Sequence record: PZ386978.1
Source of the DNA: a phage
DNA length: 64,000 nucleotides
Reading direction: 5' to 3' (one strand)
Shown here: piece by piece, positions 4,634-61,054 of the stretch
Position numbering within the stretch: position 1 is the first letter of the stretch
Layout: every line of letters begins with the position of its first letter
Position numbers and translations under genes: made by a program
Notes under the pieces: model-generated
Databases searched by the model: none
The model's input: only the letters and a program-made list of their open reading frames with translations
What the model was told of the DNA's origin: nothing

Positions 4634-5161
4634 TCAACTTAGTTTTGCAAACTCTCCGTGGAGTTTTACAGCAGCTTCACAGTAAGCTTTATGGGCTTCT
4701 TCAGGTGTGTCATAGTAGCCTAATGACATCTTTTTACCTTTATAGCTTATTTGTGCAACCCACCTGCCAGACTTCTTCTTCAGGCTTACACCTTTATAGC
4801 CTGATTTATTGGTGGATAGTTTGCTTTTATTCCAAGCACTTTGGCAGTCATCTGCTTCTCTTAAGTTTACAACCCTGTTATCAAGGGAGTCCCCATTAAT
4901 ATGGTCAATAACACCTTTCGGTAGCCTACCATACACGTACAGCCATGCGAGTCTGTGTGCTTTATGTGCTTTCTTGTCAAAATAGATAGTAATCTGCTTA
5001 TGACCAGTTGAGTCAATCTGGATGCTCCCCGCTACCTGTCCTGCGTACTTACTATTAAAGACTTTAACAGCCCTTGAGTCACCCTCTCTACGAAGCCAAG
5101 TAAAGACCCCTGTTTCGGGGTCATAGTGTAGTAGTTCCTTTAAACGTTCTTGTGTAATCAT
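4634..5161 (-). CDS. HNH homing endonuclease with AP2-type DNA-binding domain
   Basis: N-terminal HYDPETGVFTWL...HRLAWLYVYG...VDHINGDSLDNRVVNLREA (HNH core) then GVSLKKKSGRWVAQISYKGKKMSLGYYDTPEEAHKAY (AP2-like); start placed at internal Met (MITQERL) by comparison with paralogue at 14764. Confidence 0.7.
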   Translation of the reverse strand: MITQERLKELLHYDPETGVFTWLRREGDSRAVKVFNSKYAGQVAGSIQIDSTGHKQITIYFDKKAHKAHRLAWLYVYGRLPKGVIDHINGDSLDNRVVNLREADDCQSAWNKSKLSTNKSGYKGVSLKKKSGRWVAQISYKGKKMSLGYYDTPEEAHKAYCEAAVKLHGEFAKLS

Positions 5162-5171
5162 TTTGTCACCA

Positions 5172-7871
5172 TTAATGCACTTCCAACCACGATTTACCAA
5201 CCTTACCAGTACCAGTTACCAGTGTTTCACTCTTTAGTCCTAAGTTCTTAGAGGCTTGACCGTAATACCAATCAGTGACAGCCTTCACCTCTGCCGTCAT
5301 ACTTTCTGGGCATTCCCAACTCGTCTCGTCGTGATAGGAGCACAATAAACGAGCACCTATAGCTGGTTTGCGACCGTTCAACTTCATCAAACCTTCGTCA
5401 ATCATACGACGGCAAGCAAGGTTAATTGCCTCGTTCTGAATCTGACTTTCCGAACCCATGAGCAAATAATTCAATAACTTATGTGGAGATTTACACCACA
5501 ACCAAGCTCCAGCAACCTTTACAAAACCTCCTTTAGAGATTGCAGCAGTCTTACCAAACACCTCTTCAAGTGCCTTTTTAGTTGCTTTGTAGTCAGCTTC
5601 CAAGTCATCTAGCAGCTTCTTAATTTTAGGCAAACGAATAAAGTAAGTCTGTTTAGTCAGCGCACCTTCCTGAGTAGTTGCAGCTTTAATTGTCTTAGCA
5701 AACTTCTCATCACCTGCACCGAACAGTAGTGCATAGATACCATTCTTAGCTTTCTTACGACCTTTGCTAATCTCATGAAGAAGATTCTCATCCTGAGTAG
5801 CTCGACAAGTCAAGATGTCCTGCTCATCGTTCAAGCTAAAGTAAATACTGTTCAGTGTATGTGCATCAGTCCCTGAATAGACAACGTACAGGTCATTCTC
5901 AGAGTCATAGCGAAGGTACTTATCAATTTCTGGGTTGAGATACTCATCAAAATGTTTGCAGTAATAGCGTCCATCTTCTTGACGAATGAACTCAATTTCT
6001 TCTTTACCTTGTGTTACCGCTTTGGTGAAGTCTTTATCACCCATAAAGTTACAAAGGAGAACTAGCTGGGCTGAGTTCATGTCTACAGAGACAACGTTAG
6101 TCCCTTCCTCACAAATCCACACTGCCCTCATTGGTTCCCCATAGACAGCAGCACCAGACGGTACGTTTACAATACCATATTGTGTCATACGTCCAGTTGA
6201 AGTACCAAACACCATTGCACCAGCACTAAGGCGACCATCAGGACGAATCTGGTTCAACCAACCTTTTTCATCATCTTTTGAGTTCTCAATAGTTCTGCGT
6301 CGGTGCATTAAAGTATAGTACTTAGCAATCTTCTGTCCAAGCTCACCTTCAATCGTATCATAAGATGATTCAGTAAGTTTTGGTGAAGTACGGATTAAGC
6401 AAGGCTCAAGCAAATCTGTATATTTCTTCACAGACCAGTTATGCTCAATGTACTGTACACCTTCATGTTCAACATAACTCAAACCACATCGTTCCACCAT
6501 TTCCTGCCACTTAGGATGTTTTGTAATCATCTTTTTATTGTCTTTGAAACGACAAACTTTGACAGGGCGACCGTCTGAGTCTTTCTTGTAGTTCCAGTCA
6601 TCTGGAATCCAACCAACTGATTTCAAGTAGTCTTTAACAACTGCTACCTGAGTCATACGAGAAACTTCGAACTCAATTGGTGTATATGGTGCATCAATCA
6701 AACCTGTGTAGCGACTTGACTCAAGTTCAAAGTGGTTAACAACGTGACTGTTATAGTACTTCACAGTTTTGACTGTTTTTACTGGCTTCCAGTCTTTGCA
6801 CTTCTTACCAATCTTTGCGTTCAACTCATTGCAAATTGCACGAGCATCCTTCATTGCTACAAAACCTTCCTTGTACTCTTCACCAGTTACAGTGTTGGTT
6901 GGTGTATAGCAATTCCTTTTCTCAATGTTAAAAATCTTTGTAGTTGGCTTACCAAATGGCTTGATTTCATATGTTTGCATCTCGCCGTTACGTACCTGCT
7001 GACGATACTTCGTCTTAGGGTACTTGGTAATTCTTTTCAGACCATCTGCATGACCGAATGTTTCAACATACTCATTCCAAGCTTTTGCAAACTCTTCTCC
7101 AGTGACTTTACCTTTGGTCTTAATAGTTGGAGGAAGATGTGGTTCAACCTCTGAAGCAAGCTCATTAGTCAATTTGTCAAGTTCCTTCACATGGAACTCC
7201 ATAAGCTCTTTATCAGCTTTCCAGCCATTAATAGCTTGTTGACTCATCCAGAAAGATGTCTCTTTAGCTCGCATGTAAGTCTCATAAGTGTCTATACCAC
7301 ACTTCTTAAGCTTGAGATACTCGTTATCAAGTGCCCGTTTAGTTTTGGCGTTAATACGGATATCTTCTACAACACGAGTGAAGATTTCTGCATTCCACAC
7401 ACCCCAATGTTCAATCTCTGGTTTACGGACACCAACACGAGCACCCCATGCAGCCAAACCATGAGCACCTTTATAACCCTTTGGAGTTGGTCTATCCATC
7501 CACTGAACACGAGACTGGATAAGAGAATCCTGAAAGAAATTACTCCACGGCTTACATTTTGGATTATCAAAGTTCCATAAATCAGGTGCAATGTGATTGA
7601 AAACCCACCAGTCATAGCCGAGACCATTATGGATGCAAAGACGTTTTGCCTTTAACGCAAATTCAACACCTTCACGTAAGCCGCCCTTGATGTACTTGGT
7701 ATACTTGTGACCGAGGATAGGCTCATCTGTAAAGACCCATACAGGAGGCTCTTCATCGTCAGATTTATAGTCTGCAAAAGCCATTACGTGAACTTTAGTG
7801 AACTCAAGGAGTAAACCATCAGTCTCTGTATCACCAACTAAATGTAAGTTTTTAAAATCTACGTTTTCCAT
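5172..7871 (-). CDS. DNA polymerase, family A, with 3'-5' proofreading exonuclease
   Basis: Exo motif GDTETDG near N-terminus; polymerase motifs KKAKNGIYALLFGAG and YHDE; start at Met MENVDF with GGAGGG SD (ORF track begins 30 nt upstream). Confidence 0.9.
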   Translation of the reverse strand: MENVDFKNLHLVGDTETDGLLLEFTKVHVMAFADYKSDDEEPPVWVFTDEPILGHKYTKYIKGGLREGVEFALKAKRLCIHNGLGYDWWVFNHIAPDLWNFDNPKCKPWSNFFQDSLIQSRVQWMDRPTPKGYKGAHGLAAWGARVGVRKPEIEHWGVWNAEIFTRVVEDIRINAKTKRALDNEYLKLKKCGIDTYETYMRAKETSFWMSQQAINGWKADKELMEFHVKELDKLTNELASEVEPHLPPTIKTKGKVTGEEFAKAWNEYVETFGHADGLKRITKYPKTKYRQQVRNGEMQTYEIKPFGKPTTKIFNIEKRNCYTPTNTVTGEEYKEGFVAMKDARAICNELNAKIGKKCKDWKPVKTVKTVKYYNSHVVNHFELESSRYTGLIDAPYTPIEFEVSRMTQVAVVKDYLKSVGWIPDDWNYKKDSDGRPVKVCRFKDNKKMITKHPKWQEMVERCGLSYVEHEGVQYIEHNWSVKKYTDLLEPCLIRTSPKLTESSYDTIEGELGQKIAKYYTLMHRRRTIENSKDDEKGWLNQIRPDGRLSAGAMVFGTSTGRMTQYGIVNVPSGAAVYGEPMRAVWICEEGTNVVSVDMNSAQLVLLCNFMGDKDFTKAVTQGKEEIEFIRQEDGRYYCKHFDEYLNPEIDKYLRYDSENDLYVVYSGTDAHTLNSIYFSLNDEQDILTCRATQDENLLHEISKGRKKAKNGIYALLFGAGDEKFAKTIKAATTQEGALTKQTYFIRLPKIKKLLDDLEADYKATKKALEEVFGKTAAISKGGFVKVAGAWLWCKSPHKLLNYLLMGSESQIQNEAINLACRRMIDEGLMKLNGRKPAIGARLLCSYHDETSWECPESMTAEVKAVTDWYYGQASKNLGLKSETLVTGTGKVGKSWLEVH

Positions 7872-8128
7872 TTTTACTCCCTCTAAAATCATTAACCTCA
7901 TACATTACTGCAAAAAATTATAAAAAGCAAGTTGACAATGCACTTGACAAGGTGTTAATCTTTGCGAAGTGGGTTTTTACTTAAAAGGTTACTTAACAGT
8001 TTAACTATACAGATACTTTAAAACTCTTAAAAGATTATTTAATAGCTTTTAAAAAGCTTTAAAGTATAACGTATAGAATACGTTAAGATAAAAGATTAAA
8101 ACTTAATAGTTACTTAAAAGAGGCTTAC

Positions 8129-13739: not shown

Positions 13740-14786
13740 ATGGAGAAGTACACATTAACAAAGCTTCCCGATTCAGTTACACATGTTTTTATTGACTCTG
13801 ACAGCATTGCCTATAAAGGTGCTTGTGTAGTTGAGAAAGCAAAATATAAATATGTCAATAAACTCACAGCAGAAGAATCTGATTCGTTTGATAATGCAAA
13901 AGATGCTGCAAGATGGTTAGCAGACCAGAGAATCCTTGTGGAAGAGCTTGGTCTGACATTTGATGAAGATGAATGGGAAAGACAGACTTGGAAAGAAGCT
14001 AAGAGTGAAAAAGAAGCTATCATGGCTACTCAACAGGTGCTTCAGGAATGGCTTAAGGTTGTTGGTAAAGAAAGAACTTGGGTAGGTTATTTAACAGAGA
14101 AAGGTGTGCATAAACATAAAGACGTTAAAGGTCTTGAGCACCAATATCAAGGCAACCGTAAAGATGCTGTCACACCAACACACCTAGTTGCTTGTCGTGA
14201 GTATCTTCTGTCAAGACCAGAGTTCAAACTAATTCTTGATGGGTTTGAAGCCGACTCTATCGTTATTGCTAAAGCTGAAAAGATGGGTAAAAAGGCTGCC
14301 TTAATGAGTATTGATAAAGACCTTCGCCAAGCTGAAGGAACTTACTGCATTGATATGACCTATGAAAAGTCACCTTTGATTTTCATTGCTGATAACAACG
14401 TTGGTGAAATTTGGGATTGCCCAATAAAATCAACACCAAAAGCTAAGAAGACAGTTGGTGTAGGTTTTAAATTCCTTTGTTATCAAGCTGTGGCTGGTGA
14501 TAACGCGGATAATTATTTTGGTTTAAAGGGCGTTGGTAAGGCTACTGTAATGAAAGCCCTTGAAGGTAAAACCACCTACAAAGAGTGTCTTGATGCAATT
14601 TATGAGCTTTATGCTAAGAAAGAGTCGTACACTTATGTCTCGTGGGATGGTCAAACAATTACCAGAACACCCTTAGAGTTAATGCAGCAACACTTTTTCT
14701 TAGCTTATCAGGAAAGAAACAAGAAAGACGATTTCACTTTTGATAAGTATGGGTGGACACCAAATGTTAACTCAACAAACTCTTAA
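13740..14786 (+). CDS. 5'-3' exonuclease / flap endonuclease (FEN family)
   Basis: Helix-3-turn-helix-like motif GDNADNYFGLKGVGKAT; replication gene neighbourhood. Confidence 0.6.
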   Translation: MEKYTLTKLPDSVTHVFIDSDSIAYKGACVVEKAKYKYVNKLTAEESDSFDNAKDAARWLADQRILVEELGLTFDEDEWERQTWKEAKSEKEAIMATQQVLQEWLKVVGKERTWVGYLTEKGVHKHKDVKGLEHQYQGNRKDAVTPTHLVACREYLLSRPEFKLILDGFEADSIVIAKAEKMGKKAALMSIDKDLRQAEGTYCIDMTYEKSPLIFIADNNVGEIWDCPIKSTPKAKKTVGVGFKFLCYQAVAGDNADNYFGLKGVGKATVMKALEGKTTYKECLDAIYELYAKKESYTYVSWDGQTITRTPLELMQQHFFLAYQERNKKDDFTFDKYGWTPNVNSTNS

Positions 14787-15264
14787 AGAGCACCTGCACT
14801 ATGACCCCGAAACAGGGGTCTTTACTTGGTTAGTTGATAGAACAGGTAAGGCCAAAGCTGGCTCAGTAGCAGGTTTTAAACACCATAGCGGTTATATCTA
14901 TATAAAACTCTTCGGAAAAAGATATGCAGCACACAGACTGGCATTCTTGTATATGAAAGGATACCTCCCAAAATTTGTTGACCACAAGAATTGTATCAGA
15001 CACGACAACTGGTTCGACAATTTGAGAGAGTGTAGCAGGTCAGACAACAACTGTAATGCAGTCAAAAGAAGAGATAATAAGTCTGGTGTGAAGGGTGTAT
15101 ATTACCACAAGCAAAGAGGTAGATGGGCTGCACAAGTTAAGCATAATAAAGTTTGCTACCATCTAGGCCTATTTGACTCTGTTGCTGAGGCTGAAAAAGT
15201 TGTCAAAAAGAAAAGAGAAGAACTCCATAGAGAGTTTACAAATCACGGAGAAACTCATGAATGA
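14764..15264 (+). CDS. HNH homing endonuclease with AP2-type domain (paralogue of 4634..5161)
   Basis: Shares HYDPETGVFTWL N-terminus, HRLAFLYMKG, VDHKN...DNLRE HNH core and GVKGVYYHKQRGRWAAQV AP2-like segment; start moved to Met MLTQQTL. Confidence 0.7.
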   Translation: MLTQQTLKEHLHYDPETGVFTWLVDRTGKAKAGSVAGFKHHSGYIYIKLFGKRYAAHRLAFLYMKGYLPKFVDHKNCIRHDNWFDNLRECSRSDNNCNAVKRRDNKSGVKGVYYHKQRGRWAAQVKHNKVCYHLGLFDSVAEAEKVVKKKREELHREFTNHGETHE

Positions 15265-15761
15265 TTAAAGTTAAAGGTTTTGGGAGTTGCCCCACTTATG
15301 GTCACTGGATTTCACTATGTGGTGAAGTTGACCCAGCAAAGCACTTTGGTTTTGTCTACCTAGTGTACTGCAAAAAGACTGGACAGTACTATTTGGGTAA
15401 GAAGCAGCTTAACAGTGTGACCAAAAGAAAAGTTGCTGGGAAGACTCGGAAGAAGGTAGTCACTAAGGAGAGTGATTGGATGACTTACGAGACTTCTTCT
15501 GAGTATATTAAAAAAGATATTGATAGCTTTGGAAAAGAATTTTTTGACTTTTACATTATTCAAACCTACTACACAAAAGGTGGCCTAGTCTATGGTGAAG
15601 CAAACCTTCAACATAAATTCGATGTAATGACAAAAAGGATTGACTCGAAGCTCAGACTCTTCTACAATGCCAATATTGCAGCAATTAAGTTTATTACTAA
15701 AGAAACTTATGAAGATGCTGAAAAAAGAATCCATAAGGTAATGAAAGCAAATTGTGCTTGA
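15261..15761 (+). CDS. hypothetical protein
   Basis: 166 aa ORF. Confidence 0.45.
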   Translation: MIKVKGFGSCPTYGHWISLCGEVDPAKHFGFVYLVYCKKTGQYYLGKKQLNSVTKRKVAGKTRKKVVTKESDWMTYETSSEYIKKDIDSFGKEFFDFYIIQTYYTKGGLVYGEANLQHKFDVMTKRIDSKLRLFYNANIAAIKFITKETYEDAEKRIHKVMKANCA

Positions 15762-17440: not shown

Positions 17441-19675
17441 ATGATTAAGACAATTAAAAAATCAAACGGTACAGTAGTAAGCTTTGACCCAGAAAGACTG
17501 AACAAGTGGGCATCATGGGCAGATAAGCGTGGAATTATCTGGTCAGAAGTCACTATGGAAGCCATGAAACGTGTCTATGAAGGATGCACTACAAAAGAGA
17601 TGCACCAAGCCATGATTGATGTTTGTGTTGATAAACAAACTCAAGAGTACTCAGACATGGCTGGACGGCTACTTTTGGGTATTATCTACAAAGAAGCCTT
17701 TGGAGGCTTTACTAAGGTTCCTACACTGATTACCTTCGTTAAAAATATGGAGAGAGCAGGACTTTGGGAGAAGATGGACTATTCACAGGAAGAGCTTGAA
17801 TACCTGCAAGGTTACATCGTACACTCAAAAGATATCTCTTACGGTTATGCAGTCTTGAAACAGTTCAGAGACAAGTATGGTATCCGTGATATTAAAACGG
17901 GAAGACTTTTTGAGTCACCACAATTTATGTTTATGGGTATGGCTATGAAAGCTTTTGAGAAGCAACCAAAGCACCGTAGACTGCAAGATGTTATCAAGCT
18001 GTACACTTACCTATCTGACCTGAAGATTAACGCTCCTACGCCTTATTTAAATGGTTTAAGAGCAACTAAATCAGGTTATGCGTCATGCTGTTTGATTAAG
18101 GCAAATGATACTGCTGAGTCTCTCGGTATTGCTGCAAAGGTTGCTTATGATATGACCACAAAGCAAGCTGGTATCGGTATGCTGATGGAGACACGCACTA
18201 TTGGTGATGGTATCCGTCAAAATACGATTGAGCACATGGGTAAACTGCCTTATTACAAGCTTGTACGTTCATCTGTAGAGGCAAACAAACAGAAGAGCCG
18301 TGGTGGTTCAGCTAATAACTTCTACACTGCTCTAGACCCGCAGATTGAAGATTTACTGCGTTTGAAGCACCCTACAACGGTTCCTTCTAAACGTATTAAT
18401 GAGATGGACTACTCATTCGGCACAAACGATTATTTCTGGCAGTGTGTTCAGTATGATACAGATTGGTTGCTATTCTCTTACAAAGATGCACCAAAACTCT
18501 ATGACATGTTCTACACAGCATCTGCTGATGAGTTTGCTATGGCAGTTGGTCACGCAGTACATTCAGGAGTTAAGCACAGACGAGTAAAGGCTCGTGAAAT
18601 TGCTAAGCTGTTTATTCAACAGCGTTATGCTACAGGTCGTGTGTATCCATTCTTCACAAATAATGCGAACACACATACACCATTTAAAGAGCCTTTGAAG
18701 ATGTCAAATCTTTGTATGGAAATTGTGTTGCCAGTGTATGGTTTTGAGAAAGAGACAGACCTTTACAGAGACGATGCTGTGAAAGAGGATGGTGAGGTGG
18801 CTCTTTGCTTCCTAGCTAGTTTGGTTGCAGGGAGAATTTCAGAAGATGAATACGCTGACGTTGCTTATTATGCTCTTGCAATGGTTGACTCCGTTATTGA
18901 CCTTATGGATTATCCGTATCCGTCGATGCGTAACCACGTTCAGAAGCGTCGTTCTGTTGGGATTGGCCTTACAAATGTGGCTCATTACCTTGCGAAGAAC
19001 TACGTGAACTACTCTTCACGAGCAGGTAAAACGAAACTTCATGAACTTGCAGAGATGCACTCTTACTACCTGCATGAAGCCTCTCTGAGACTTGCTAAAG
19101 AGCGTGGAGTTCCAGAGTACATGAAGTTCACTAAGTATCCTGAAGGGTGGGTTCCTCCAAAGACAGCTAACAAGAAGATTGATGAAAAGCATGATGCGAA
19201 ACTACGATATGATTGGGATGACTTAGCACAACGTATCAAAGAGAATGGTGGAATCCGAAACTCTGTATTAGAAGCTTACATGCCTAATGAGAGTTCTTCA
19301 CTAGCAACTAATACGACAAATGGCTTGTACCCAATTCGTGACTTTATTTTAACTAAAAAGTCTGCAACTGGTAACGTGCTGTTTATTGTTCCAGACTACG
19401 AAGAGTTGAAGTATGTCTATGAAATTGCTTGGGATATTGACACCTTTGATATGATTGACTGTTATGCAATTGTTCAAAAGTTCACTGGTCAAGCTATCTC
19501 TTCAGACTTCTATGTTGACTATTCAAAGTCTAAGAAGGTATCATTGGCTCAAGCTCTGAAGTACATGATTTATGCCAACTCGGTAGGTATGAAAACCATG
19601 TACTACCTTAACAGTCGCATTGGTGTAGGTAAATCTGCACTGCAAGATGCTTATTGCGAGGGTTGTGGTGTTTAG
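17441..19675 (+). CDS. nrdA: ribonucleoside-diphosphate reductase large subunit (class I)
   Basis: 744 aa; N-terminal ATP-cone-like region; catalytic-site motif NLCMEI; followed by nrdB. Confidence 0.9.
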   Translation: MIKTIKKSNGTVVSFDPERLNKWASWADKRGIIWSEVTMEAMKRVYEGCTTKEMHQAMIDVCVDKQTQEYSDMAGRLLLGIIYKEAFGGFTKVPTLITFVKNMERAGLWEKMDYSQEELEYLQGYIVHSKDISYGYAVLKQFRDKYGIRDIKTGRLFESPQFMFMGMAMKAFEKQPKHRRLQDVIKLYTYLSDLKINAPTPYLNGLRATKSGYASCCLIKANDTAESLGIAAKVAYDMTTKQAGIGMLMETRTIGDGIRQNTIEHMGKLPYYKLVRSSVEANKQKSRGGSANNFYTALDPQIEDLLRLKHPTTVPSKRINEMDYSFGTNDYFWQCVQYDTDWLLFSYKDAPKLYDMFYTASADEFAMAVGHAVHSGVKHRRVKAREIAKLFIQQRYATGRVYPFFTNNANTHTPFKEPLKMSNLCMEIVLPVYGFEKETDLYRDDAVKEDGEVALCFLASLVAGRISEDEYADVAYYALAMVDSVIDLMDYPYPSMRNHVQKRRSVGIGLTNVAHYLAKNYVNYSSRAGKTKLHELAEMHSYYLHEASLRLAKERGVPEYMKFTKYPEGWVPPKTANKKIDEKHDAKLRYDWDDLAQRIKENGGIRNSVLEAYMPNESSSLATNTTNGLYPIRDFILTKKSATGNVLFIVPDYEELKYVYEIAWDIDTFDMIDCYAIVQKFTGQAISSDFYVDYSKSKKVSLAQALKYMIYANSVGMKTMYYLNSRIGVGKSALQDAYCEGCGV

Positions 19676-19730: not shown

Positions 19731-19988
19731 ATGAAAGATTTAATAGAAAAACATGAGCGGCCTATATACTTGCTCTACAAGCCTAGGAAAACGATGTACT
19801 ATGTGAGTAGCACAGACATAATGATAAAACAAAATGATGACTCATGGGTTGCTGGTATCTCTTACATCTCTACAGCAGATGGTAAAATCTACGCAAGACC
19901 TTATGAGATGTTTAACAAAGAAAATTGGGAAGTTTTAGACAGAAAACAAGCCTTAAAAATGATAAAGAAAGGAGAAATCACGCTATGA
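19731..19988 (+). CDS. hypothetical small protein between nrdA and nrdB
   Basis: Start at MKDLIEKHE with GGAGAG SD; ORF track begins earlier at 19647. Confidence 0.4.
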   Translation: MKDLIEKHERPIYLLYKPRKTMYYVSSTDIMIKQNDDSWVAGISYISTADGKIYARPYEMFNKENWEVLDRKQALKMIKKGEITL

Positions 19989-21058
19989 TTAACCAGCACC
20001 CAATCTTTTTAGGTGGTGAGAGAAAAACTTTTGACTCACTTAATAAGTACTACCCAAAAATCTTTGAACTTTATAAACAACAAAAAGCACAAGACTGGTC
20101 AGAAGATGAGTTCCCTTTTGAACAATCACGTCTTGATTTTGAGAGTGTCCCAGCATCAATGTCAGGTGTAATGCTTGAGATTCTTAAGTGGCAATGGGAA
20201 GCAGATACTCAAGTTGCTAAGAGCTTGGCATTTGCCTTTGCACCATTTATCTCTGATGACATTTATGCAACTGCAATTATGAAGCAGTCTGAGATTGAAA
20301 ACCTACATGCTCTCACTTACTCAGAGATTGTAAGACAATGTATTAAAAACCCTGAAACAATCTTAGATGAGATTAACCAGAATGTTGCTGTGCAAGACCG
20401 ATTAAAAACTGTGAATCGTGTTCTTGAAGAATTACTGGATGAAGGTATAAACTATCGTCTTAGTTATGTGCGTGATTCACTTCTGGACAAAGACCCTTTA
20501 CACTTCCATAAAGTGATTCTGAAAGGGCTGTTTGCAGTGACTGCACTTGAAGGTATATCTTTTATGGCATCATTTGCATGTACTTTTGCACTTGATGCTC
20601 AAGATAAATTTCAGGGTATTGCTCAAGCGGTACAGAAAATCATGCTTGACGAAATCCTTCACACTAAAATTGATATTGAAGTTTTAAAAGAAACTTTAAG
20701 AGATGATGAGTGGCAGAAAGCTTTTCAACAAATTCTTCCAGAGATTAAAGTAATCTTAGATGAAGTAGTTGAAAGTGAAGAGAAATGGTCGTATTATATC
20801 TTCTCCGAAGGACGTGCTGTAGTTGGCCTAAATACAAAGCTTCTTCATGAGTGGGTTTACTATAATGCTGCCCCACTGTATGATATGTTTGGCATTCCCA
20901 GAGATTTTGTAGCTCCTAAAGAACCACCTTTGAAGTACATGATTAAGAAGATGGAAATTGATAAAGAGCAGAATGCTAATCAGGAGCAACAGAACGGTGC
21001 GTACCTATTGAATACTGTTGTAGATGATTTGAATAGTGGATTTTTAGAGGTTCCTTAA
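19985..21058 (+). CDS. nrdB: ribonucleoside-diphosphate reductase small subunit (class I)
   Basis: Adjacent to nrdA; start placed at MINQHPIF with GGAG SD (ORF track starts 19925); size and position typical. Confidence 0.8.
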   Translation: MINQHPIFLGGERKTFDSLNKYYPKIFELYKQQKAQDWSEDEFPFEQSRLDFESVPASMSGVMLEILKWQWEADTQVAKSLAFAFAPFISDDIYATAIMKQSEIENLHALTYSEIVRQCIKNPETILDEINQNVAVQDRLKTVNRVLEELLDEGINYRLSYVRDSLLDKDPLHFHKVILKGLFAVTALEGISFMASFACTFALDAQDKFQGIAQAVQKIMLDEILHTKIDIEVLKETLRDDEWQKAFQQILPEIKVILDEVVESEEKWSYYIFSEGRAVVGLNTKLLHEWVYYNAAPLYDMFGIPRDFVAPKEPPLKYMIKKMEIDKEQNANQEQQNGAYLLNTVVDDLNSGFLEVP

Positions 21059-21300
21059 TGACTTATGTAATTTACTCCAAAACTGGATGCCCTCAATGTG
21101 AGACTGCAAAGAATTTTGCAAAAGCTCGTGGTATTGAACATGTTGTGAGAATGTTAGGGCAGGACTATGAGCTATCAGACCTGATGGATATTGCACAGAT
21201 GCCAGTTCGTCAGATGCCATTCATCATGAAAACTGATGGGCAAAACCTAAAACCTGTTGGAACGCTACAGAATTTTATGGCAGAGGTGAATAATGCTTAA
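21058..21300 (+). CDS. glutaredoxin/NrdH-like redoxin
   Basis: 80 aa, N-terminal YSKTGCPQCETAK thioredoxin-fold CxxC active site. Confidence 0.7.
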   Translation: MTYVIYSKTGCPQCETAKNFAKARGIEHVVRMLGQDYELSDLMDIAQMPVRQMPFIMKTDGQNLKPVGTLQNFMAEVNNA

Positions 21301-21547: not shown

Positions 21548-22744
21548 ATGAACAAAGTACAGATTATTAAAAAGAACGGCTCACTCGAAGAACCTGATAT
21601 CAAAAAAGTTTTAGCAGCAGTCACAAAGTCAGCTAATAGGGTTGGGTATAAAGAACTCCCACCAGATGTTACCCAAGCTCTTGAGTCAGCATTTATGAGG
21701 ATTCTGGTAAAATCCACTAAGCAGAATAATTTACTCATTTCAGTAAATGATATTCACAGTATTGTTGAGGGTGCTTTGGCAGAAGTCAATCACGAGATTT
21801 ATGAGTCTTACTCAACATATAGAAATTACCGTAAAGAAGTTGCTCAGAATTGGGATGAGCTTTATCAGAAGACCAAAGATACACTCTTCTTAGGTGACCG
21901 AGAAAATGCTAATTTTGACAGCAGTTTAATTTCTACAAAAGGTTCAATTATTCGTGGTTATCTGACTAAAGAAATCTTTAAACAGTACCATTTAACACCA
22001 GAGGAACTTGAAGCCATTGAAAAAGGGTTTATCTATATCCATGATTTAAGAGACCTAATTTTTGGTGGTATCAACTGTTGCCTGTTTGACATTGGTAAAG
22101 TCCTGAAAGGTGGCTTTGAAATGTCTGGCATTGAATATTGTGAACCAAAGTCTGTGCTGTCGGCCTTACAGGTTATTGGTGACGTAGTTCTTTCAGCAAC
22201 TGCACAGCAATTTGGTGGCTTTACTTTAGCAGAGATTGATAAGGTACTCGTACCGTATGCTAAGAAGTCTCTACGCTATCATGCTGAGAAAGCAGCATCT
22301 TATGGTATTCCTAAAGAACATTACCACAATTATGTCATGGAGCAGTTACAGATTGAGCTAACTCAAGGTTTCCAGTCACTTGAAATGAAACTCAATACTG
22401 TGCCTTGTAGCCGTGGGGATTTTGCATTCACAACTTTGACATTCGGGTTACTTGACTCAGATATGTCCAATGAAGATAACCGACTGCAATATATGATTGC
22501 AAGTACTCTCCTAGATGTTCGTATGAATGGACAAGGTAAGAGCAAGAAGCCTGTTGTATTTCCTAAACTGGTTTATATTTATGACCAGAAGAGACACGAT
22601 GAGAATATCTGTCAAGGACACCTGTACAGTAAAGCTATTGAGTGTTGCTCTAAAGCAATGTATCCAGATTTCTTAAGTGTATCTGGTCATGGTGCTGTAG
22701 CAGAGGCTTTTGAGCGTTCTGGCAAGGTTATTTCACCGATGGGT
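21548..22744 (+). CDS. nrdD: anaerobic ribonucleoside-triphosphate reductase, exon 1
   Basis: Reading frame ends ...ISPMG at an in-frame TAA; continuation found in frame ~740 nt downstream; exon ends with U as expected for a group I 5' splice site. Confidence 0.75.
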
Positions 22745-23486
22745 TAACAAGCTCTATAGCTCATCTAAAACGTGCCTAAACAGGGAAACTCTACAGGTGT
22801 AGACAATCCTGTGCTAAATGATGTACGATGTAAGAAACTATATGACATAGGAGTATTACATGCCAAATTATCATGTTACTGAAGACGGAAGAGTCTTTAG
22901 GAAAAATGGTGTAGAACTTAAGCAGTGGAAATCCAACACTGGGTATATGAAAGTGAGGTTTTACGGTAAGAAGAATCGTGACATGTATGTTCATAGGTTA
23001 GTTGCTGAGAAATATGTACCTAACCCGAACAATCTTCCAATTGTAAAACACAAAGATGATAACAAACTGAATAACCATGCTTCTAACTTAGAATGGGGAA
23101 CTCATTCTGAGAATGTTAAAGAAGGTTATGAAAATGGTTGCTACAAGTTTTGTAAGCGTTCATATGCTGTGAAGGCTACACACAAAGTAACAAAAGAAGT
23201 TATTGTTGCGAACTCGATACGAGAGTTGTCCAAGATGCTTGGGTATAATCGCAAGACTATCTCTTCAATACTGAAGGGTGTAAAAGAATATAATAACTTT
23301 GAACATGAATTTGAATACATCTAAATGCCGAACGACTAACCGTGATGAATGTAGCGGTGTAGGGTCAAGCGACTCGAAATGGTACGCTACTTAGAAATAA
23401 GTAGAAGATATAGTCTGGACTTACTGGCGACAGTAAGCAGCTTGAATAAAGCGGGGTAAGCTTAGCGAACTTACCTGAACAACAAG
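22745..23486 (+). mobile_element. putative group I intron interrupting nrdD, carrying an HNH homing endonuclease ORF
   Basis: Non-coding flanks around ORF 22860..23324; 3' end ...AACAAG ends in G; joining 22744 to 23487 restores ...ISPMG|CRAFLSPYHNEHGEEFYVGRAN... Confidence 0.6.
22860..23324 (+). CDS. HNH homing endonuclease (intron-encoded)
   Basis: 154 aa; motifs YVHRLVAEKY...VKHKDDNKLNNHASNLEWGTHSEN typical of HNH_3 family. Confidence 0.75.
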   Translation: MPNYHVTEDGRVFRKNGVELKQWKSNTGYMKVRFYGKKNRDMYVHRLVAEKYVPNPNNLPIVKHKDDNKLNNHASNLEWGTHSENVKEGYENGCYKFCKRSYAVKATHKVTKEVIVANSIRELSKMLGYNRKTISSILKGVKEYNNFEHEFEYI

Positions 23487-24434
23487 TGTAGAGCATTTTT
23501 ATCACCATACCATAACGAACATGGTGAAGAGTTTTATGTAGGTCGTGCTAATATTGGTGCTGTATCTTTGAACTTACCAATGATTTACCAGTATTCTAAA
23601 GAGAATGGCTTAGATTTCTGGAAAGAGCTTGATAAGTACCTAGAAATGATTCGTAGTTTCCACAAGAAACGCTATGAAATGATTGCCAATATGCCAGCAA
23701 GTTCTAATCCTCTTGCATTTACACAAGGTGGTCTGTACAAAGGAACTAAGAAGCCTACTGACAGGGTTGGTTGGGATATTGTGAAGTCCTTCACAGCTTC
23801 TTTTGGGGTTACTGCGCTTGATGAGCTATCTGTTCTTGCTGAAGGTAAACGACTTCATGAAGTTGGAAGCTATAGTTTTGCATATGATGTTCTGGCATAC
23901 ATCAACATGAAAACTGAAGAGTTTAAGAACGAAGATGGCTTCTTGTATGCGGTATATGGCACTCCAGCAGAATCACTTTGTGGAACTCAGTTAAAACAGT
24001 TCAGAGATATGTTTGGCGTTATTAAAGGTGTCTCTGACAAGGAATACTTTACAAACAGTTTCCATATGAATGTTGCAGCAGACATCTCACCATTTGAGAA
24101 GCAGGACTTAGAAGAACCATTCTTCCATATCTGTAGAGGTGGCAGAATCCAGTATGTCAGGGTAGCTAACCCAGAAAACTTAACAGCACTTAAGAGTTGT
24201 ATTACGAGAGGTATGTTGAAAGGTTTCTATCAGGGACTTAACTTTGACTTAGCAATCTGTGAACATTGTGGTAACAGACCAAAGGCTGATGTTGAAGAAT
24301 GTGAGGTTTGTCATTCACATGACATCTCTGTGATTAACAGGGTGTGCGGGTACTTGTCATTCACAAAAATTAAAGGTCAGTCTCGAATGAATGATGCAAA
24401 AATCGCTGAGATTCGTGACAGGATTTCTATGTAA
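23487..24434 (+). CDS. nrdD: anaerobic ribonucleoside-triphosphate reductase, exon 2
   Basis: C-terminal zinc site CEHCG...CEVCHSH and glycyl-radical motif RVCGYLS; ORF track calls only the portion from 23568. Confidence 0.75.
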   Translation, partial: CRAFLSPYHNEHGEEFYVGRANIGAVSLNLPMIYQYSKENGLDFWKELDKYLEMIRSFHKKRYEMIANMPASSNPLAFTQGGLYKGTKKPTDRVGWDIVKSFTASFGVTALDELSVLAEGKRLHEVGSYSFAYDVLAYINMKTEEFKNEDGFLYAVYGTPAESLCGTQLKQFRDMFGVIKGVSDKEYFTNSFHMNVAADISPFEKQDLEEPFFHICRGGRIQYVRVANPENLTALKSCITRGMLKGFYQGLNFDLAICEHCGNRPKADVEECEVCHSHDISVINRVCGYLSFTKIKGQSRMNDAKIAEIRDRISM

Positions 24435-25732: not shown

Positions 25733-26218
25733 ATGAATTACATGGAGATTAGACCATTTGACACAGCTAATGGTGAAGGGGTTCGTGTAAGCCTCTTCGT
25801 AGCTGGTTGTAAGCATCACTGTGAAGGCTGCTTTAACAGGGAGTCTTGGAAGTTTAATGCTGGTAAAGTGTTCACTTATGCAAACCTATATGGAATCATC
25901 CAGTTAATGGGTGATGATGCTGTCAGTGGGTTGTCAATACTTGGTGGAGAACCTCTGGATGATAGAAACATTCAAGAGGTTACCAACATATGCAAACGTA
26001 TTAAAACCGTTTACCCAGAAAAATCTATCTGGCTCTGGACAGGTTTTCAGTTACATGAAAAAATTCACCTTGATGTGATGAAATATGTTGACGTGGTGAT
26101 TGATGGCAAGTATGATTCATCTAAACCAACAGTTAAACCATATCGTGGTTCTGATAACCAAAACCTCTGGAGAAAAGAGTATGGGTGGCAAGGTGATTGT
26201 CAGTGGAGAGCAGAGTGA
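25733..26218 (+). CDS. nrdG: anaerobic ribonucleotide reductase activating protein (radical SAM)
   Basis: 161 aa; N-terminal FDTANGEGVRVSLFVAGCKHHCEGC iron-sulfur cluster motif. Confidence 0.8.
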   Translation: MNYMEIRPFDTANGEGVRVSLFVAGCKHHCEGCFNRESWKFNAGKVFTYANLYGIIQLMGDDAVSGLSILGGEPLDDRNIQEVTNICKRIKTVYPEKSIWLWTGFQLHEKIHLDVMKYVDVVIDGKYDSSKPTVKPYRGSDNQNLWRKEYGWQGDCQWRAE

Positions 26219-57983: not shown

Positions 57984-58057
57984 CTCTGTTTAGCTCAGCT
58001 TGGTAGAGCGTTCCGTTTGGGGCGGTAAGGCCGGAGGTTCAAGTCCTCCAACAGAGA
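57984..58057 (+). tRNA. tRNA-Pro (anticodon UGG)
   Basis: Acceptor CTCTGTT/AACAGAG, D-arm GCTC..GAGC, anticodon loop TTTGGGG, T-arm GGAGGTTCAAGTCCTCC, CCA encoded. Confidence 0.7.
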
Positions 58058-58067
58058 CCAAATTAAT

Positions 58068-58142
58068 GTTCCAGTAGACAAAATGGTATAGTCACCACTC
58101 TTTCAAAGTGGATATTTGAGGGTTCAAATCCCTTCTGGAACG
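58068..58142 (+). tRNA. tRNA-Glu (anticodon UUC)
   Basis: Acceptor GTTCCAG/CTGGAAC, anticodon stem CCACT/AGTGG with loop CTTTCAA, T-loop TTCAAAT, CCA encoded. Confidence 0.7.
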
Positions 58143-58152
58143 CCAGTTTTGA

Positions 58153-58226
58153 CAGAAGACCAATTACAGCAAACTTAATCTTATTCATCTGAAGGTAAAT
58201 CGGACAAAGAAGAGATTTGGTCTGGT
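58153..58226 (+). ncRNA. conserved stem-closed element, copy 1
   Basis: CAGAAGACCAATTACAGCAA...ATTTGGTCTGG; stem AGACCAA/TTGGTCT. Confidence 0.4.
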
Positions 58227-58237
58227 CATTAAGAATT

Positions 58238-58310
58238 GCGGGTATAGAGAAAGGGCGTCTCACATGTCTCATTAGCATGGTATCGGCAGGTTCGACTCCT
58301 GCACCCGCCT
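58238..58310 (+). tRNA. tRNA-Met family (anticodon CAU; initiator, elongator or Ile-lysidine undetermined)
   Basis: D-stem GAGA/TCTC, anticodon stem CATGT/GCATG with loop CTCATTA, T-arm GCAGGTTCGACTCCTGC; acceptor boundary ambiguous by 1 nt. Confidence 0.6.
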
Positions 58311-58317
58311 CCAAATT

Positions 58318-58384
58318 TACAGAAGACCGTTTACAGCAATATTTATTAAATTTTTAGCGGAAAAATTGAAAGATACGGTCTGGT
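58318..58384 (+). ncRNA. conserved stem-closed element, copy 2
   Basis: CAGAAGACCGTTTACAGCAA...ATACGGTCTGG; stem AGACCGT/ACGGTCT (compensatory to copy 1). Confidence 0.4.
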
Positions 58385-58396
58385 AATACTAAACAT

Positions 58397-58470
58397 GGTT
58401 AGGAAGCACATAAGGTATGTGCGGTCGCCTGTTAAGCGAATGGCACAGGGTTCGAATCCCTGACTAACCG
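58397..58470 (+). tRNA. tRNA-Asn (anticodon GUU)
   Basis: Acceptor GGTTAGG/ACTAACC, D-stem GCAC/GTGC, anticodon loop CTGTTAA, T-arm CAGGGTTCGAATCCCTG, CCA encoded. Confidence 0.7.
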
Positions 58471-58542
58471 CCAAATTTAGGAGAGAAGCGATTGCTCACC
58501 GATTTGTAAGGTGCAAGTCCTTAGCCTGAATAGAAATTAAAT

Positions 58543-58627
58543 GTGTCGTTATCCCGTAGATGGTAGCGGTGGGGACTGTAAATCCCTTGTCATTGAGACT
58601 CGGTAGGTTCGACTCCTACACGGCACA
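58543..58627 (+). tRNA. tRNA-Tyr (anticodon GUA), long variable arm
   Basis: 85 nt; acceptor GTGTCGT/ACGGCAC, anticodon loop CTGTAAA, long variable arm, T-arm GTAGGTTCGACTCCTAC, CCA encoded. Confidence 0.65.
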
Positions 58628-58635
58628 CCAATAAA

Positions 58636-58710
58636 GGTTATGTAGTTTAATTTGGTTAAAATACTCCCCTGTCACGGGAGATGATGAGGGTTCAAATCCA
58701 TTCGTAACCG
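58636..58710 (+). tRNA. tRNA-Asp (anticodon GUC)
   Basis: Acceptor GGTTATG/CGTAACC, anticodon stem CTCCC/GGGAG with loop CTGTCAC, T-loop TTCAAAT, CCA encoded. Confidence 0.65.
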
Positions 58711-58773
58711 CCAATTTTGAGAGGGCTATTTAGCCCCTCCCTTAAAGAGTTCTTACGAGTATTCTTTAAAGGA

Positions 58774-58849
58774 GCAGAAGACCAAATACAGCAAGTTACT
58801 TAAAATTTCAAGCCAATTTAATTTTGAAAAATTTAAAACTTGGTCTGGC
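58774..58849 (+). ncRNA. conserved stem-closed element, copy 3
   Basis: CAGAAGACCAAATACAGCAA...CTTGGTCTGG; stem AGACCAA/TTGGTCT. Confidence 0.4.
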
Positions 58850-58860
58850 TCAACAAATTT

Positions 58861-58993
58861 ACAGAAGACCGTTTACAGCAAAACTTAAACAATCTATTTC
58901 TCGGTAAAGAAAAGGCGAAGGTTCGATTCCTTCACTCGGCAGATGTCGAGTTGGTGTAATGGTAGCACTTAAGATGATAAACAACGGTCTGGT
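58861..58993 (+). ncRNA. conserved stem-closed element, copy 4, with an embedded permuted tRNA-like segment
   Basis: CAGAAGACCGTTTACAGCAA...AACGGTCTGG; interior has T-arm GAAGGTTCGATTCCTTC + ACTCGGC directly followed by GTCGAGT + D-arm-like GGTGTAATGGTAGCAC. Confidence 0.4.
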
Positions 58994-59136
58994 AATTATC
59001 TTTGTAGATAAGTTATTAAGCTTACCTGTGAGTATGCGACCACAAAGGGTGAAGGGTAAATTCTAGATTTAAACCCAAAAAGGCACATCGCTACAGACCT
59101 TAAGCAAGTCTGGGTAGCTTATCTACAAAGATAATT
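58994..59136 (+). repeat. 19 bp perfect inverted repeat enclosing ~105 nt
   Basis: AATTATCTTTGTAGATAAG at 58994-59012 and its exact reverse complement CTTATCTACAAAGATAATT at 59118-59136. Confidence 0.6.
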
Positions 59137-59140
59137 TAAT

Positions 59141-59213
59141 GGAAGTGTAGCAGAATGGTGATGCGGCAGACTTTTAATCTGACAGGCGATGGGTTCGAAT
59201 CCCTCCACTTCTA
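59141..59213 (+). tRNA. tRNA-Lys (anticodon UUU)
   Basis: Acceptor GGAAGTG/CACTTCT, anticodon loop CTTTTAA, T-loop TTCGAAT, CCA encoded; paralogue of tRNA at 60730. Confidence 0.6.
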
Positions 59214-59220
59214 CCAATAT

Positions 59221-59294
59221 GGTTCAGTCGCAGATAAGGTAATGCAAGGGTCTCATAAGCCCTATGAATGTGGGTTCGATTCCCATCTGAACCT
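59221..59294 (+). tRNA. tRNA-Met family, second copy (anticodon CAU)
   Basis: Acceptor GGTTCAG/CTGAACC, anticodon stem AGGGT/GCCCT with loop CTCATAA, T-loop TTCGATT, CCA encoded. Confidence 0.65.
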
Positions 59295-59298
59295 CCAA

Positions 59299-59371
59299 GC
59301 TGGTATAGTTAAGAAGGTTATAACACTCCCCTGATAAGGGAACATCGGTGGTTCGATTCCACCTACCAGTA
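59299..59371 (+). tRNA. tRNA-Ile (anticodon GAU)
   Basis: Acceptor GCTGGTA/TACCAGT, D-stem GTTA/TAAC, anticodon loop CTGATAA, T-arm GGTGGTTCGATTCCACC, CCA encoded. Confidence 0.7.
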
Positions 59372-59389
59372 CCAATTTCAATAAAGTTG

Positions 59390-59418
59390 TTGACATTGAG
59401 ATGTGACTACTTTATAGT
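59390..59418 (+). promoter_or_regulatory. sigma70-like promoter inside tRNA cluster
   Basis: TTGACA 59390-59395, 17 nt spacer, TATAGT 59413-59418. Confidence 0.55.
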
Positions 59419-59622
59419 AACCTTAGTTTTCGTTGCGTAGCGTCTATTTTGCAAATTTAAAATAAATGCAAACGACAATGTTTTTCTGGCAGTAGCTTGA
59501 TAGGCTAAACACCAGTGAGGTCTTCCAATCCCTCATCAAAGAATTTGGCGTACTAGCCCACGGTATGATTAATAAGGTGGGCATCTTTAAGGGCTTTCTA
59601 AGAGAGTCTTTAAAGATAATTA

Positions 59623-59701
59623 CGGGGCGTATCTCAGCTGTCTTCTAAACAGCCGTTAATCGAGTAAGTGGAGTATGCGGGTTCGAGTCCTGCCGCCTCG
59701 A
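59623..59701 (+). ncRNA. atypical tRNA-like gene (acceptor + T-arm + anticodon-like hairpin with loop CTTCTAA; no recognisable D-arm)
   Basis: Acceptor CGGGGCG/CGCCTCG, T-arm GCGGGTTCGAGTCCTGC, hairpin GCTGT-CTTCTAA-ACAGC (would read UCU, Arg), 22 nt extra segment, CCA encoded. Confidence 0.4.
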
Positions 59702-59718
59702 CCAATTTTGGAGAAATC

Positions 59719-60066
59719 ATGAAAACTTGTATTAGGTGCAAACTCAGCAAGGATGAAAATGATTTCTACATGAAAGATGGTAGGAGAACTCATTCATACT
59801 GTAAAAAGTGTGTTAATGAGCAAACCATAGAAAGACAAAGAGCACTTAAACTCTCAGCTATTGAGTACAAAGGTGGGGTTTGTCACGATTGTGGTAAAAA
59901 GTATCATCCAGCAGTGTATGACTTCCATCATTTGAATCCTTCAGATAAAGATTTTAACATTGGTCATAGGAAAAGCCTTAAGTTCTCTCAAGAACTAAAA
60001 GATGAACTTGACAAATGTGTTTTGCTATGTTCAAATTGCCATAGGGTAAGACATGCAAAGTATTAG
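59719..60066 (+). CDS. HNH endonuclease within tRNA cluster
   Basis: Start at MKTCIRCK with GGAG SD (track start 59668 overlaps the upstream tRNA-like gene); zinc-finger cysteines and HNH core DFHHLNP...CSNCHRVRH. Confidence 0.7.
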   Translation: MKTCIRCKLSKDENDFYMKDGRRTHSYCKKCVNEQTIERQRALKLSAIEYKGGVCHDCGKKYHPAVYDFHHLNPSDKDFNIGHRKSLKFSQELKDELDKCVLLCSNCHRVRHAKY

Positions 60067-60203
60067 TTAGCAGATTACTTAGACGACCTTAGCGGGTCTC
60101 CGTGTAGGGAGGTGGTCTGTATCTCATGTTTTCCAGAACATGTAAATAATCTGAGAAGGGGCTTTACAGTGTTGAGATAATACGGTAAGCTTCGAATTAT
60201 AGT

Positions 60204-60283
60204 GTGGGACGATGTTAAGACTCTAAGGCATGAGCAACGGCCTCCAAAACCGTTTCAAAGGGGTTCAACTCCTCCGTCCCATG
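60204..60283 (+). tRNA. tRNA-Trp (anticodon CCA), 5' boundary uncertain
   Basis: Anticodon loop CTCCAAA, T-loop TTCAACT, acceptor GTGGGAC/GTCCCAT, CCA encoded; D-region longer than canonical. Confidence 0.5.
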
Positions 60284-60299
60284 CCAAAGTCTTATTAGG

Positions 60300-60387
60300 G
60301 GTAGGTAGCGGCTAATGGCAGCCAAACAGTCTTGAAAACTGTTGCCACTGTAGAGATACGGTGAGGGTTCGACTCCTTTACTTACCG
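60300..60387 (+). tRNA. tRNA-Ser (anticodon UGA), long variable arm
   Basis: 88 nt; acceptor GGTAGGT/ACTTACC, anticodon stem ACAGT/ACTGT with loop CTTGAAA, long variable arm, T-loop TTCGACT. Confidence 0.65.
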
Positions 60388-60644
60388 CCTAATAAGATTT
60401 AAAGCCAAGCTTCATTCGGATGTTGCTTTGGTATCACTCGTGTATTGTCGTACACACTGATAAAACACTTAGTAGGTGTCACGGAGAAGAGATAATATCA
60501 AGCTCTCCAAAGGTTCTAGTCACCGGATTAAACAAGACTATGCAAAGACCTTTTTAGGTCTTTTTAGAGGGCTTCTAAGGTTATTACAGCTTGTTGTGGA
60601 ACCTTGTTGCTTAGGTTCTTAGAAGTTCTCTAAAAAGATTTAAT

Positions 60645-60719
60645 GGGAGATTGATGGTAATTGGTAAACCTATCTCGCTTAGAACGAGATGTTTGAGGGT
60701 TCGAATCCCTTGTCTCCTA
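60645..60719 (+). tRNA. tRNA with anticodon UAG (Leu by anticodon) but short variable arm
   Basis: Anticodon stem TCTCG/CGAGA with loop CTTAGAA, T-arm GAGGGTTCGAATCCCTT, acceptor GGGAGAT/GTCTCCT, CCA encoded; 5 nt variable loop. Confidence 0.5.
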
Positions 60720-60729
60720 CCAAATTAAT

Positions 60730-60802: not shown

Positions 60803-60811
60803 CCAGACATT

Positions 60812-60884: not shown

Positions 60885-60893
60885 CCAATTAGT

Positions 60894-60965: not shown

Positions 60966-60975
60966 CCAAATTAAT

Positions 60976-61048: not shown

Positions 61049-61054
61049 CCAATT

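Follow-up and report, generated by a model that had tools for sequence, protein, structure and literature searches.

We analysed a 64,000-nucleotide (nt) stretch of phage DNA (sequence record PZ386978.1), called the window below, in which the reading frame of nrdD is interrupted by a 742-nt insert. The insert is very probably a group I intron, mobile and of the same type as those of T4 td and nrdD, and it resembles subgroup IA2; judged from sequence comparisons, phages with this insert almost certainly possess a single, intact nrdD whose intron self-splices. A first-pass annotation of the window, made from the letters and a list of open reading frames (ORFs), had proposed that nrdD is split by a group I intron with an HNH endonuclease, and the predicted fold, covariation, the splice-site rules and the homology of the intron ORF all support that proposal. 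In a GenBank comparison, the nrdD region was 96% identical over its entire length to Escherichia phage Andreotti; identity to many Felixounavirus phages (Felix O1-like myoviruses) of Salmonella and Escherichia was 94-96%.

The insert separates the Gly399 and Cys400 codons of nrdD

The exon 1 frame ends in ...AFERSGKVISPMG (ISPMG), with GGT as its last codon at 22744, and the codon right after it (22745-22747) is an in-frame TAA. Reading picks up again at 23487 with TGT AGA GCA (CRAFLSPYHNEHGEEFYVGRAN; CRAFLSPYHNEHGEEF...) and continues through the motif RVCGYL to the stop at 24434. Exon 1 covers positions 1-250 of the Pfam NRDD model together with an ATP-cone, and exon 2 covers positions 264-560 together with Gly_radical. 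When joined, the exons encode a 714-amino-acid (aa) NrdD that aligned gap-free across the junction with the solved structures 9d3x and 1h78 (T4 NrdD), PMGCRAFL standing opposite PMGCRSFL. The insert sits between the codons for Gly399 and Cys400, and the junction aligns with Gly289-Cys290 of T4 NrdD in the same SPMGC motif; in the T4 enzyme, Cys290 is the active-site thiyl-radical cysteine.

The first-pass annotation had the frame breaking at 22744 and resuming at 23487, which the sequence and intron-less relatives confirmed to the base. It had also described exon 2 as reaching the zinc site and RVCGYL, and we could read the frame through both, with a Pfam Gly_radical match. The insertion, said to lie beside a catalytic-region cysteine, is directly 5' of the Cys400 codon that aligns with T4 Cys290, and the alignment of the spliced product to NrdD homologues, suggested as a check, was continuous. 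Lastly, an insert of ~740 bp with U before it and G at its end, as group I rules expect, had been described; it measures exactly 742 nt, the final base of exon 1 is U22744 and the final base of the insert is G23486.

To define the junction in relatives, we searched GenBank phages with a 400-nt "spliced" query and with the intron itself, and fetched 29 IMG/VR contigs with exon 2. The junction was resolved at 31 loci (28 of the 29 contigs, two GenBank relatives and the window). The insert was exactly 742, 316 or 0 nt long at these loci, always between ...CCGATGGGT and TG[T/C]AGAGC. In 19 intron-less relatives, ...CCGATGGGT was joined directly to TG[C/T]AGAGC... at the insert site, as in BPS15Q2 or Felix O1, which read TGCAGAGCTTTCTTATCC...; 12 closely related IMG/VR contigs were intron-less. 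The 316-nt allele equals the 742-nt element minus a 426-nt in-frame deletion in its ORF, which leaves a residual mini-ORF, MPNNFEYEF(G/E)YI. Among ~220 GenBank records, ~60-70 had the intron with its ORF, ~30 an ORF-less intron and ~120 no intron; these frequencies are rough estimates from coverage counts rather than a census. All three states, including outright presence and absence, were observed among phages more than 90% identical, which makes the genus well suited, as a system with three natural states, to work on intron homing, co-conversion and endonuclease-gene loss.

Both exons were open in all 12 intron-bearing alleles. Third codon positions accounted for most of the differences, one example being 123 nt differences with 12 aa differences, and intron-less alleles showed the same. 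Moreover, in the frame of exon 2, translation could start no earlier than a TTG at 23568, 27 codons past the junction. Open exons, a predominance of third-position changes and the lack of a start that covers Cys400 together argue that nrdD function depends on splicing.

Two GenBank records stood out in the searches: MG065664.1 (Campylobacter phage A132) and GU169904.1 (Staphylococcus phage SA1) contain an nrdD that is 93-97% identical to that of the window, with an ORF-less intron in A132. Both records are probably mislabelled, chimeric or contaminated.

Covariation supports a group I ribozyme fold

A structure built by hand contains, in order, P1, P3, P4, P5, P6, P6a, P7, P7.1, P7.2, P8, P9, P9.1 and P9.2, without P2 (Table 1), and all its core helices are fully paired in the window copy. 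In P1, AUGGGU at the end of exon 1 pairs with GCUCAU, and U22744.G22759 closes the helix at the splice site; this pairing holds in six of eight aligned family introns, the remaining two being misaligned in the P1 region. In P10, CUCUAUA pairs with UGUAGAG at the start of exon 2 (23487-23493) at every one of seven positions. The introns of Vibrio phage 355E48.1 and phage nieznany lie at the same site, and reading their sequences showed that their guides pair with their own, differing exon 2 over 8 bp and 5 bp, respectively. P7, the helix that binds guanosine in group I introns, is GACUA/UAGUC, and the J8/7-P7 segment AAGAUAUAGUC is identical to the Rfam consensus.

We next compared eight introns with their ORFs removed: those of the window, Vibrio phage 355E48.1 nrdD, Phapecoctavirus nieznany nrdD, RB6 td (T4 td type), T4 nrdD and SHSML-52-1 nrdD, and two Aeromonas phage introns. 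Standard pairs were formed in 95.1% of cells, against 36-42% when the partners were slid by 1-3 columns, and 44 of 69 pairs had changed on both sides. None of 500 shuffles reached any of the five observed covariation measures. P3, P6a, P7.2 and P8 were paired in 100% of cells and P9.2 in 92%, with several sequence versions of each helix; P3 alone occurred in seven different fully paired versions among the eight introns. In P7.1, 97% of cells paired and all four pairs covaried. As far as sequence can tell, comparative data could hardly make a stronger case for a ribozyme fold.

The Rfam model RF00028 (Intron_gpI), with a gathering threshold of 50 bits, recognised the natural ORF-deleted allele of phage REP8 at 53.2 bits (expectation value E = 9e-13); the parts that this allele retains are ~97% identical to the window. 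The passing score on the ORF-deleted allele and the strong covariation substantiate the earlier suggestion that the sequence flanking the ORF forms a group I core. The nrdD intron was the sole match in the window: no other group I intron was found in the 64 kb at E <= 0.05.

The presence of P7.1 and P7.2 between P7 and P3' and homology to T4 introns define subgroup IA2 in the Michel-Westhof classification, and the window intron has these IA2-type features. Its core matched segments of the td and nrdD introns of T4 at 71-82% identity, and further matches were found in introns of Vibrio, Aeromonas, Phapecoctavirus and phiKZ-like phages. The closest relatives, the T4 td and nrdD introns, self-splice experimentally (PMC2988022).

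Some family members lie in genes for which no intron is annotated in the records. ORF-less introns of this family were present in the large terminase gene of Aeromonas phage 4L372XY (L009 1915-2300) and in an unannotated gene of Aeromonas phage phiA047 (L008 1925-2180), and in the phiKZ-like Pseudomonas phage kmuB (L011) an intron-family match adjoins an RNA polymerase subunit gene. None of the three records annotates an intron at these places.

The intron ORF encodes a predicted HNH endonuclease of the I-HmuI type

The ORF at 22860-23324 has 154 codons, lies in a different frame from exon 1 and has its own Shine-Dalgarno sequence and ATG. It matched Pfam HNH_3 (E = 2.7e-10; 40.2 bits against a cut-off of 24.8) and phrog_59 (HNH endonuclease; E = 1e-45). 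Residues 3-142 aligned with residues 12-160 of I-HmuI (PDB 1u3e; E = 1e-10), and His64, Asn76 and Asn85 are identical to the residues of the I-HmuI His-Asn-Asn motif at the corresponding positions. Weak Pfam matches to NUMOD1 and helix-turn-helix domains were seen at residues 110-146. The alignment covers the full I-HmuI-type architecture: an N-terminal sheet, the HNH domain and a C-terminal helix-turn-helix part. All nine 742-nt copies keep the ORF intact. The first-pass annotation had called it a free-standing HNH ORF; it is indeed HNH and intron-encoded, of the HNH_3 family and I-HmuI-like, but it is not free-standing, as it occupies the P6a loop, with its final two codons serving as the P6a 3' strand.

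Variants linked to the intron are confined to a short tract of exon 2

We then compared 12 intron-plus with 13 intron-minus close relatives over 1150 nt on the exon 1 side and 1400 nt on the exon 2 side. All nine sites whose allele frequency differed by at least 0.8 according to intron presence were at exon 2 positions +3 to +54; at this cut-off, no linked site was found in the 1150 nt of exon 1 or downstream beyond +54. Eight of the nine linked variants are at third codon positions, and one changes His to Leu. So short, sharp and one-sided a tract is compatible with co-conversion that started at a break in exon 2; it may otherwise mark where an exon 2-binding enzyme has its target. In addition, locus L017 has the exons most divergent from the window (91.2% identical) yet the most similar intron (98.5%), so that intron and exon similarities disagree.

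Alternative explanations are much less probable than an intron

Several results count against a group I intron, or against its mobility. An Rfam scan of the whole window at default gathering thresholds missed the copy. In a permissive scan, the copy scored 33.1 bits against RF00028, below the threshold (E = 1.8e-6 on 951 nt and 1.2e-4 on the whole window), with a match that spans J8/7-P7 (GAAGAUAUAGUCU) and P9 and a second fragment that corresponds to P4-P6. P7 is invariant in all eight introns, so covariation is uninformative there, and P9.1 is weak (paired in 71% of cells). The window sequence itself contributed to the alignment and structure, a bias in favour of the unslid structure in the slid control but not in the compensatory counts. 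For the ORF, we found no hairpin that would sequester the ribosome-binding site as in I-TevI, the local fold being no better than shuffled sequence (z = -0.30), and no sigma-70-type promoter, the seven promoter-like sites being no more than shuffles gave (9.7 expected). With regard to mobility, the linked tract could alternatively reflect selection for resistance to the enzyme instead of co-conversion, and Felix O1-like phages recombine freely, so that a patchy distribution alone is no proof of homing. The Rfam scan, which the first-pass annotation had named as a check, was divided: the window copy fell short, while the ORF-less REP8 allele passed. The low score of the window copy is explained by the 465-nt ORF in the P6a loop, which splits the core.

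We considered whether nrdD might instead be decaying, the insert being a splicing-defective relic and nrdD a pseudogene in carrier phages. The deletion of the endonuclease ORF in some alleles and the sub-threshold score of the window copy would fit such decay, and NrdD is probably dispensable in aerobic laboratory growth. However, every core helix is fully paired in the window copy, the ORF accounts for its Rfam score, and all intron-bearing alleles keep their exons open with the third-position bias seen in intron-less alleles. We consider a relic highly improbable. An equally small chance attaches to a truly split nrdD, in which an inserted homing endonuclease gene, without any splicing, leaves two polypeptides that together make up an active enzyme. 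Two NrdD fragments and a homing endonuclease are what most GenBank records annotate, Bardina et al. (2016) wrote of a split nrdD in UAB_Phi87, with a homing endonuclease as the interruption (PMC4837284), and there is a precedent in NrdA of Aeromonas phage Aeh1, which is split by mobE and functional without an intron (PMC3653736). Against this, the flanking non-coding sequence makes up a group I core that covaries and, in the ORF-less allele, passes the Rfam threshold, and the ORF-less alleles retain a 316-nt ribozyme that would serve no purpose in a split gene. Furthermore, a separate C-terminal protein that starts at the TTG at 23568 would be without Cys400 and the conserved CRAFLSP. In view of the ribozyme and of the absence of a start codon that covers Cys400, we rejected a split gene without splicing. 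Removal at the protein level, as an intein, can be dismissed altogether: inteins are common in phage ribonucleotide reductase genes, often beside catalytic cysteines (PMC3653736), but the first codon of the insert is an in-frame TAA, which refutes an intein outright. The endonuclease ORF is also in another frame than exon 1 with its own translation signals, and Pfam detected no intein or Hint domain in the insert.

A model for splicing and mobility

For a group I intron at this site, we propose that the transcribed RNA would fold into the P1-P9.2 ribozyme. The GCUCAU guide would pair with the last six bases of exon 1, AUGGGU, placing the splice-site U in a U.G wobble, and the adjoining CUCUAUA would pair with the first seven bases of exon 2 to form P10. 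Free guanosine would attack after U22744, and the released exon 1 would then attack after G23486. Ligation would give ...AUGGGU/UGUAGAG... (the slash marks the junction; ...CCGAUGGGU/UGUAGAGCA... at the DNA level, or, extended, CCGAUGGGU/UGUAGAGCAUUU...) and restore the 714-aa NrdD. On unspliced RNA, ribosomes would be expected to halt at the UAA that opens the intron. Mobility would depend on the 154-aa I-HmuI-like HNH endonuclease encoded in the P6a loop and presumably translated from its own Shine-Dalgarno sequence; recombinational repair would then copy the intron and ~50 nt of the downstream exon into the recipient.

A more speculative extension, drawn by analogy and in our view rather unlikely when taken as a whole, is that the endonuclease, beyond selfish homing, may act as a weapon between co-infecting Felix O1-like phages, that the ~50-nt exon 2 tract may be the immunity determinant that shields carriers from the enzyme they encode and that the family may have moved between nrdD sites by reverse splicing. 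The model for the first part is PhiPA3 gp210, an I-HmuI-like nicking HNH enzyme encoded in a group I intron at a conserved site of a jumbo-phage RNA polymerase gene, for which a role in competition between co-infecting phages has been demonstrated (PMC11620839). The host gene differs from that of the window intron, for which such a role is conjectural. If true, it would explain the presence of the intron in ~40% of sequenced Felixounavirus genomes. As for movement between sites, the guide GCUCAU serves two nrdD sites, AUGAGU (T4, SHSML-52-1) and AUGGGU (window, Vibrio, nieznany), and this shared guide suggests that the family may have moved between sites within nrdD.

Comparison with known phage introns

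The window intron is no departure in concept from the T4 and SPO1 paradigms. From P3 to P9.2, with P7.1 and P7.2 among them, its core helices have homologues in the IA2 introns of T4 td and nrdD (sunY); like them, it occupies a gene of nucleotide metabolism at a conserved catalytic region. It shares the P1 guide GCUCAU with the T4 nrdD intron and the placement of the endonuclease ORF in the P6a loop with T4 td, whereas the ORF of the T4 nrdD intron lies downstream of P9. The window intron has no P2 hairpin; in the alignment, the td-type RB6 intron has ~20 extra nt between P1 and P3. The enzymes differ as well, being HNH in the window and GIY-YIG in T4 (I-TevI and I-TevII). We rejected orthology with the T4 nrdD (sunY) intron, which encodes the GIY-YIG enzyme I-TevII and interrupts its gene at a point that corresponds to codons 280/281 of the window NrdD, 119 codons upstream of the window site at 399/400.

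The window ORF is similar over its full length to I-HmuI, the nicking HNH enzyme of Bacillus phage SPO1 (PDB 1u3e), and keeps its His-Asn-Asn residues; both are encoded within phage group I introns. I-HmuI comes from another host gene (DNA polymerase rather than nrdD) and another phage lineage, and the window protein, known from sequence, is 20 aa shorter.

Among Felixounavirus relatives (Meda, JohannRWettstein, UAB_Phi87, FSL SP-010 and others), introns at the same site were 92-98.5% identical to that of the window, and no biologically significant difference from it was apparent. Far outside the genus, Vibrio phage 355E48.1 and Escherichia phage nieznany (Phapecoctavirus) have a homologous ribozyme inserted in nrdD at exactly the position seen in the window (SPMG/CR, ahead of the Cys codon), with homologous HNH ORFs (39% and 48% identical to that of the window, respectively), also in the P6a loop. 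Their host NrdD proteins are only 28-34% identical to the window NrdD, which argues that ribozyme and ORF travelled as a unit to the conserved ...MG/C... site in distant phage lineages. The two ORFs continue through P6', J6/7 and P7 to a C-terminal EMPND, whereas the window has UAA in place of GAA five codons earlier, so that the stop codon has moved out of the ribozyme core. The 3' core of the window intron also matches the sequence adjoining an RNA polymerase subunit gene in phiKZ-like phages.

In the 355E48.1 (L003 1890-2706) and nieznany (L010 1396-2169) records, the intron is labelled as gene "fragments" or "hypothetical protein". The 355E48.1 record splits nrdD a second time, into "part 2" and "part 3" (L003 3333-3451); tblastn aligned exon 2 continuously in one frame across this gap, and the additional break may be an artefact of annotation or reflect one stop codon.

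Previous annotation of the element

The element is already known, in that some annotators recognise an intron and most records list two gene fragments. The GenBank records of Meda and JohannRWettstein give nrdD as a joined coding sequence, and the announcement of the Meda genome regards the interruption as an intron (PMC6486253). For Felix O1, the genome paper reported no introns (PMC3185647), which is correct for that strain. Our literature search found no paper that joined "Felixounavirus" and "group I intron", and none that classified, folded or tested the nrdD intron of Felixounavirus. The element is carried by ~90 sequenced Felix O1-like genomes, mostly with a two-fragment nrdD that would be read as a broken gene. 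Felix O1-like phages are widely proposed for Salmonella and E. coli biocontrol and therapy, and for this reason their gene models matter.

Features of the locus and of the rest of the window

Table 1. Predicted features of the nrdD intron and its exons in the window
Feature	Position	Strand	Remarks
nrdD exon 1	21548..22744	+	399 codons; ATP-cone and N-terminal half of NrdD; ends ...SPMG
P1 exon strand AUGGGU	22739..22744	+	U22744 in U.G pair at 5' splice site
Probable group I intron, IA2-like, 742 nt	22745..23486	+	begins with in-frame UAA; terminal G at 23486
Guide segment CUCUAUA, P10 partner of first 7 nt of exon 2	22752..22758	+	sequence reading; 7/7 pairs
Internal guide sequence GCUCAU, P1 3' strand	22759..22764	+	
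P3 5' strand CGUGCC	22771..22776	+	partner 23381-23386; compensatory changes in 5/6 pairs, 100% of cells pair
P4 (22780-85 with 22807-12) around P5 hairpin (22790-94 with 22799-803)	22780..22812	+	Rfam and alignment
P6 5' strand GC (22813-14) and P6a 5' strand GAUGUA (22820-25)	22813..22825	+	P6a: 6/6 pairs covary
Shine-Dalgarno AGGAG of intron ORF	22849..22853	+	6 nt upstream of ATG; Meda record has ribosome-binding site at same place
Predicted HNH homing endonuclease ORF, 154 aa, I-HmuI-like, in P6a loop	22860..23324	+	
P6a 3' strand UACAUC (final two codons of ORF), ORF stop in internal loop, P6 3' strand GC	23316..23328	+	
P7 5' strand GACUA	23334..23338	+	partner UAGUC 23411-23415; invariant in family
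P7.1 (23339-42 with 23355-58) and P7.2 (23362-66 with 23371-75)	23339..23375	+	extra hairpins typical of subgroup IA
P3 3' strand GGUACG	23381..23386	+	
P8 hairpin CUACUUA-GAAA-UAAGUAG	23387..23404	+	6/7 pairs covary
J8/7 and P7 3' strand (AAGAUAUAGUC)	23405..23415	+	most conserved core segment
P9 hairpin CUUACUG-GCGA-CAGUAAG	23420..23437	+	
P9.1 (23440-43 with 23449-52) and P9.2 (23455-60 with 23470-75)	23440..23475	+	P9.1 weak support; P9.2 5/6 pairs covary
nrdD exon 2	23487..24434	+	315 codons and stop; first codon Cys400; zinc site; glycyl-radical motif RVCGYL
Exon 2 tract +3 to +54, variants linked to intron presence	23489..23540	+	probably co-conversion tract or endonuclease target region

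The neighbours of nrdD are nrdA (17441-19675), nrdB (19925-21058), a glutaredoxin gene (21058-21300) and nrdG (25733-26218).

Other homing-endonuclease genes were noticed elsewhere in the window. A free-standing gene with HNH_3 and AP2 domains (4634-5200, minus strand) lies directly downstream of the family A DNA polymerase gene (5172-7901, minus strand), and two tandem genes (14740-15264 and 15261-15761, both plus strand), one HNH_3 plus AP2 and one SegE-like GIY-YIG, follow a 5'-3' exonuclease-like gene. The DNA polymerase gene itself is uninterrupted in the window. An ORF-less intron was announced in Meda's DNA polymerase gene (PMC6486253), and its absence here indicates that the DNA polymerase intron is also polymorphic in the genus.

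A dense transfer RNA (tRNA) cluster on the plus strand (57984-63553) contains 23-24 genes, which agrees with the 22 tRNAs reported for Felix O1 (PMC3185647). A weak long-arm tRNA at 60300-60387 belongs to it, as do sub-threshold transfer-messenger RNA-like matches at 59316-59621.

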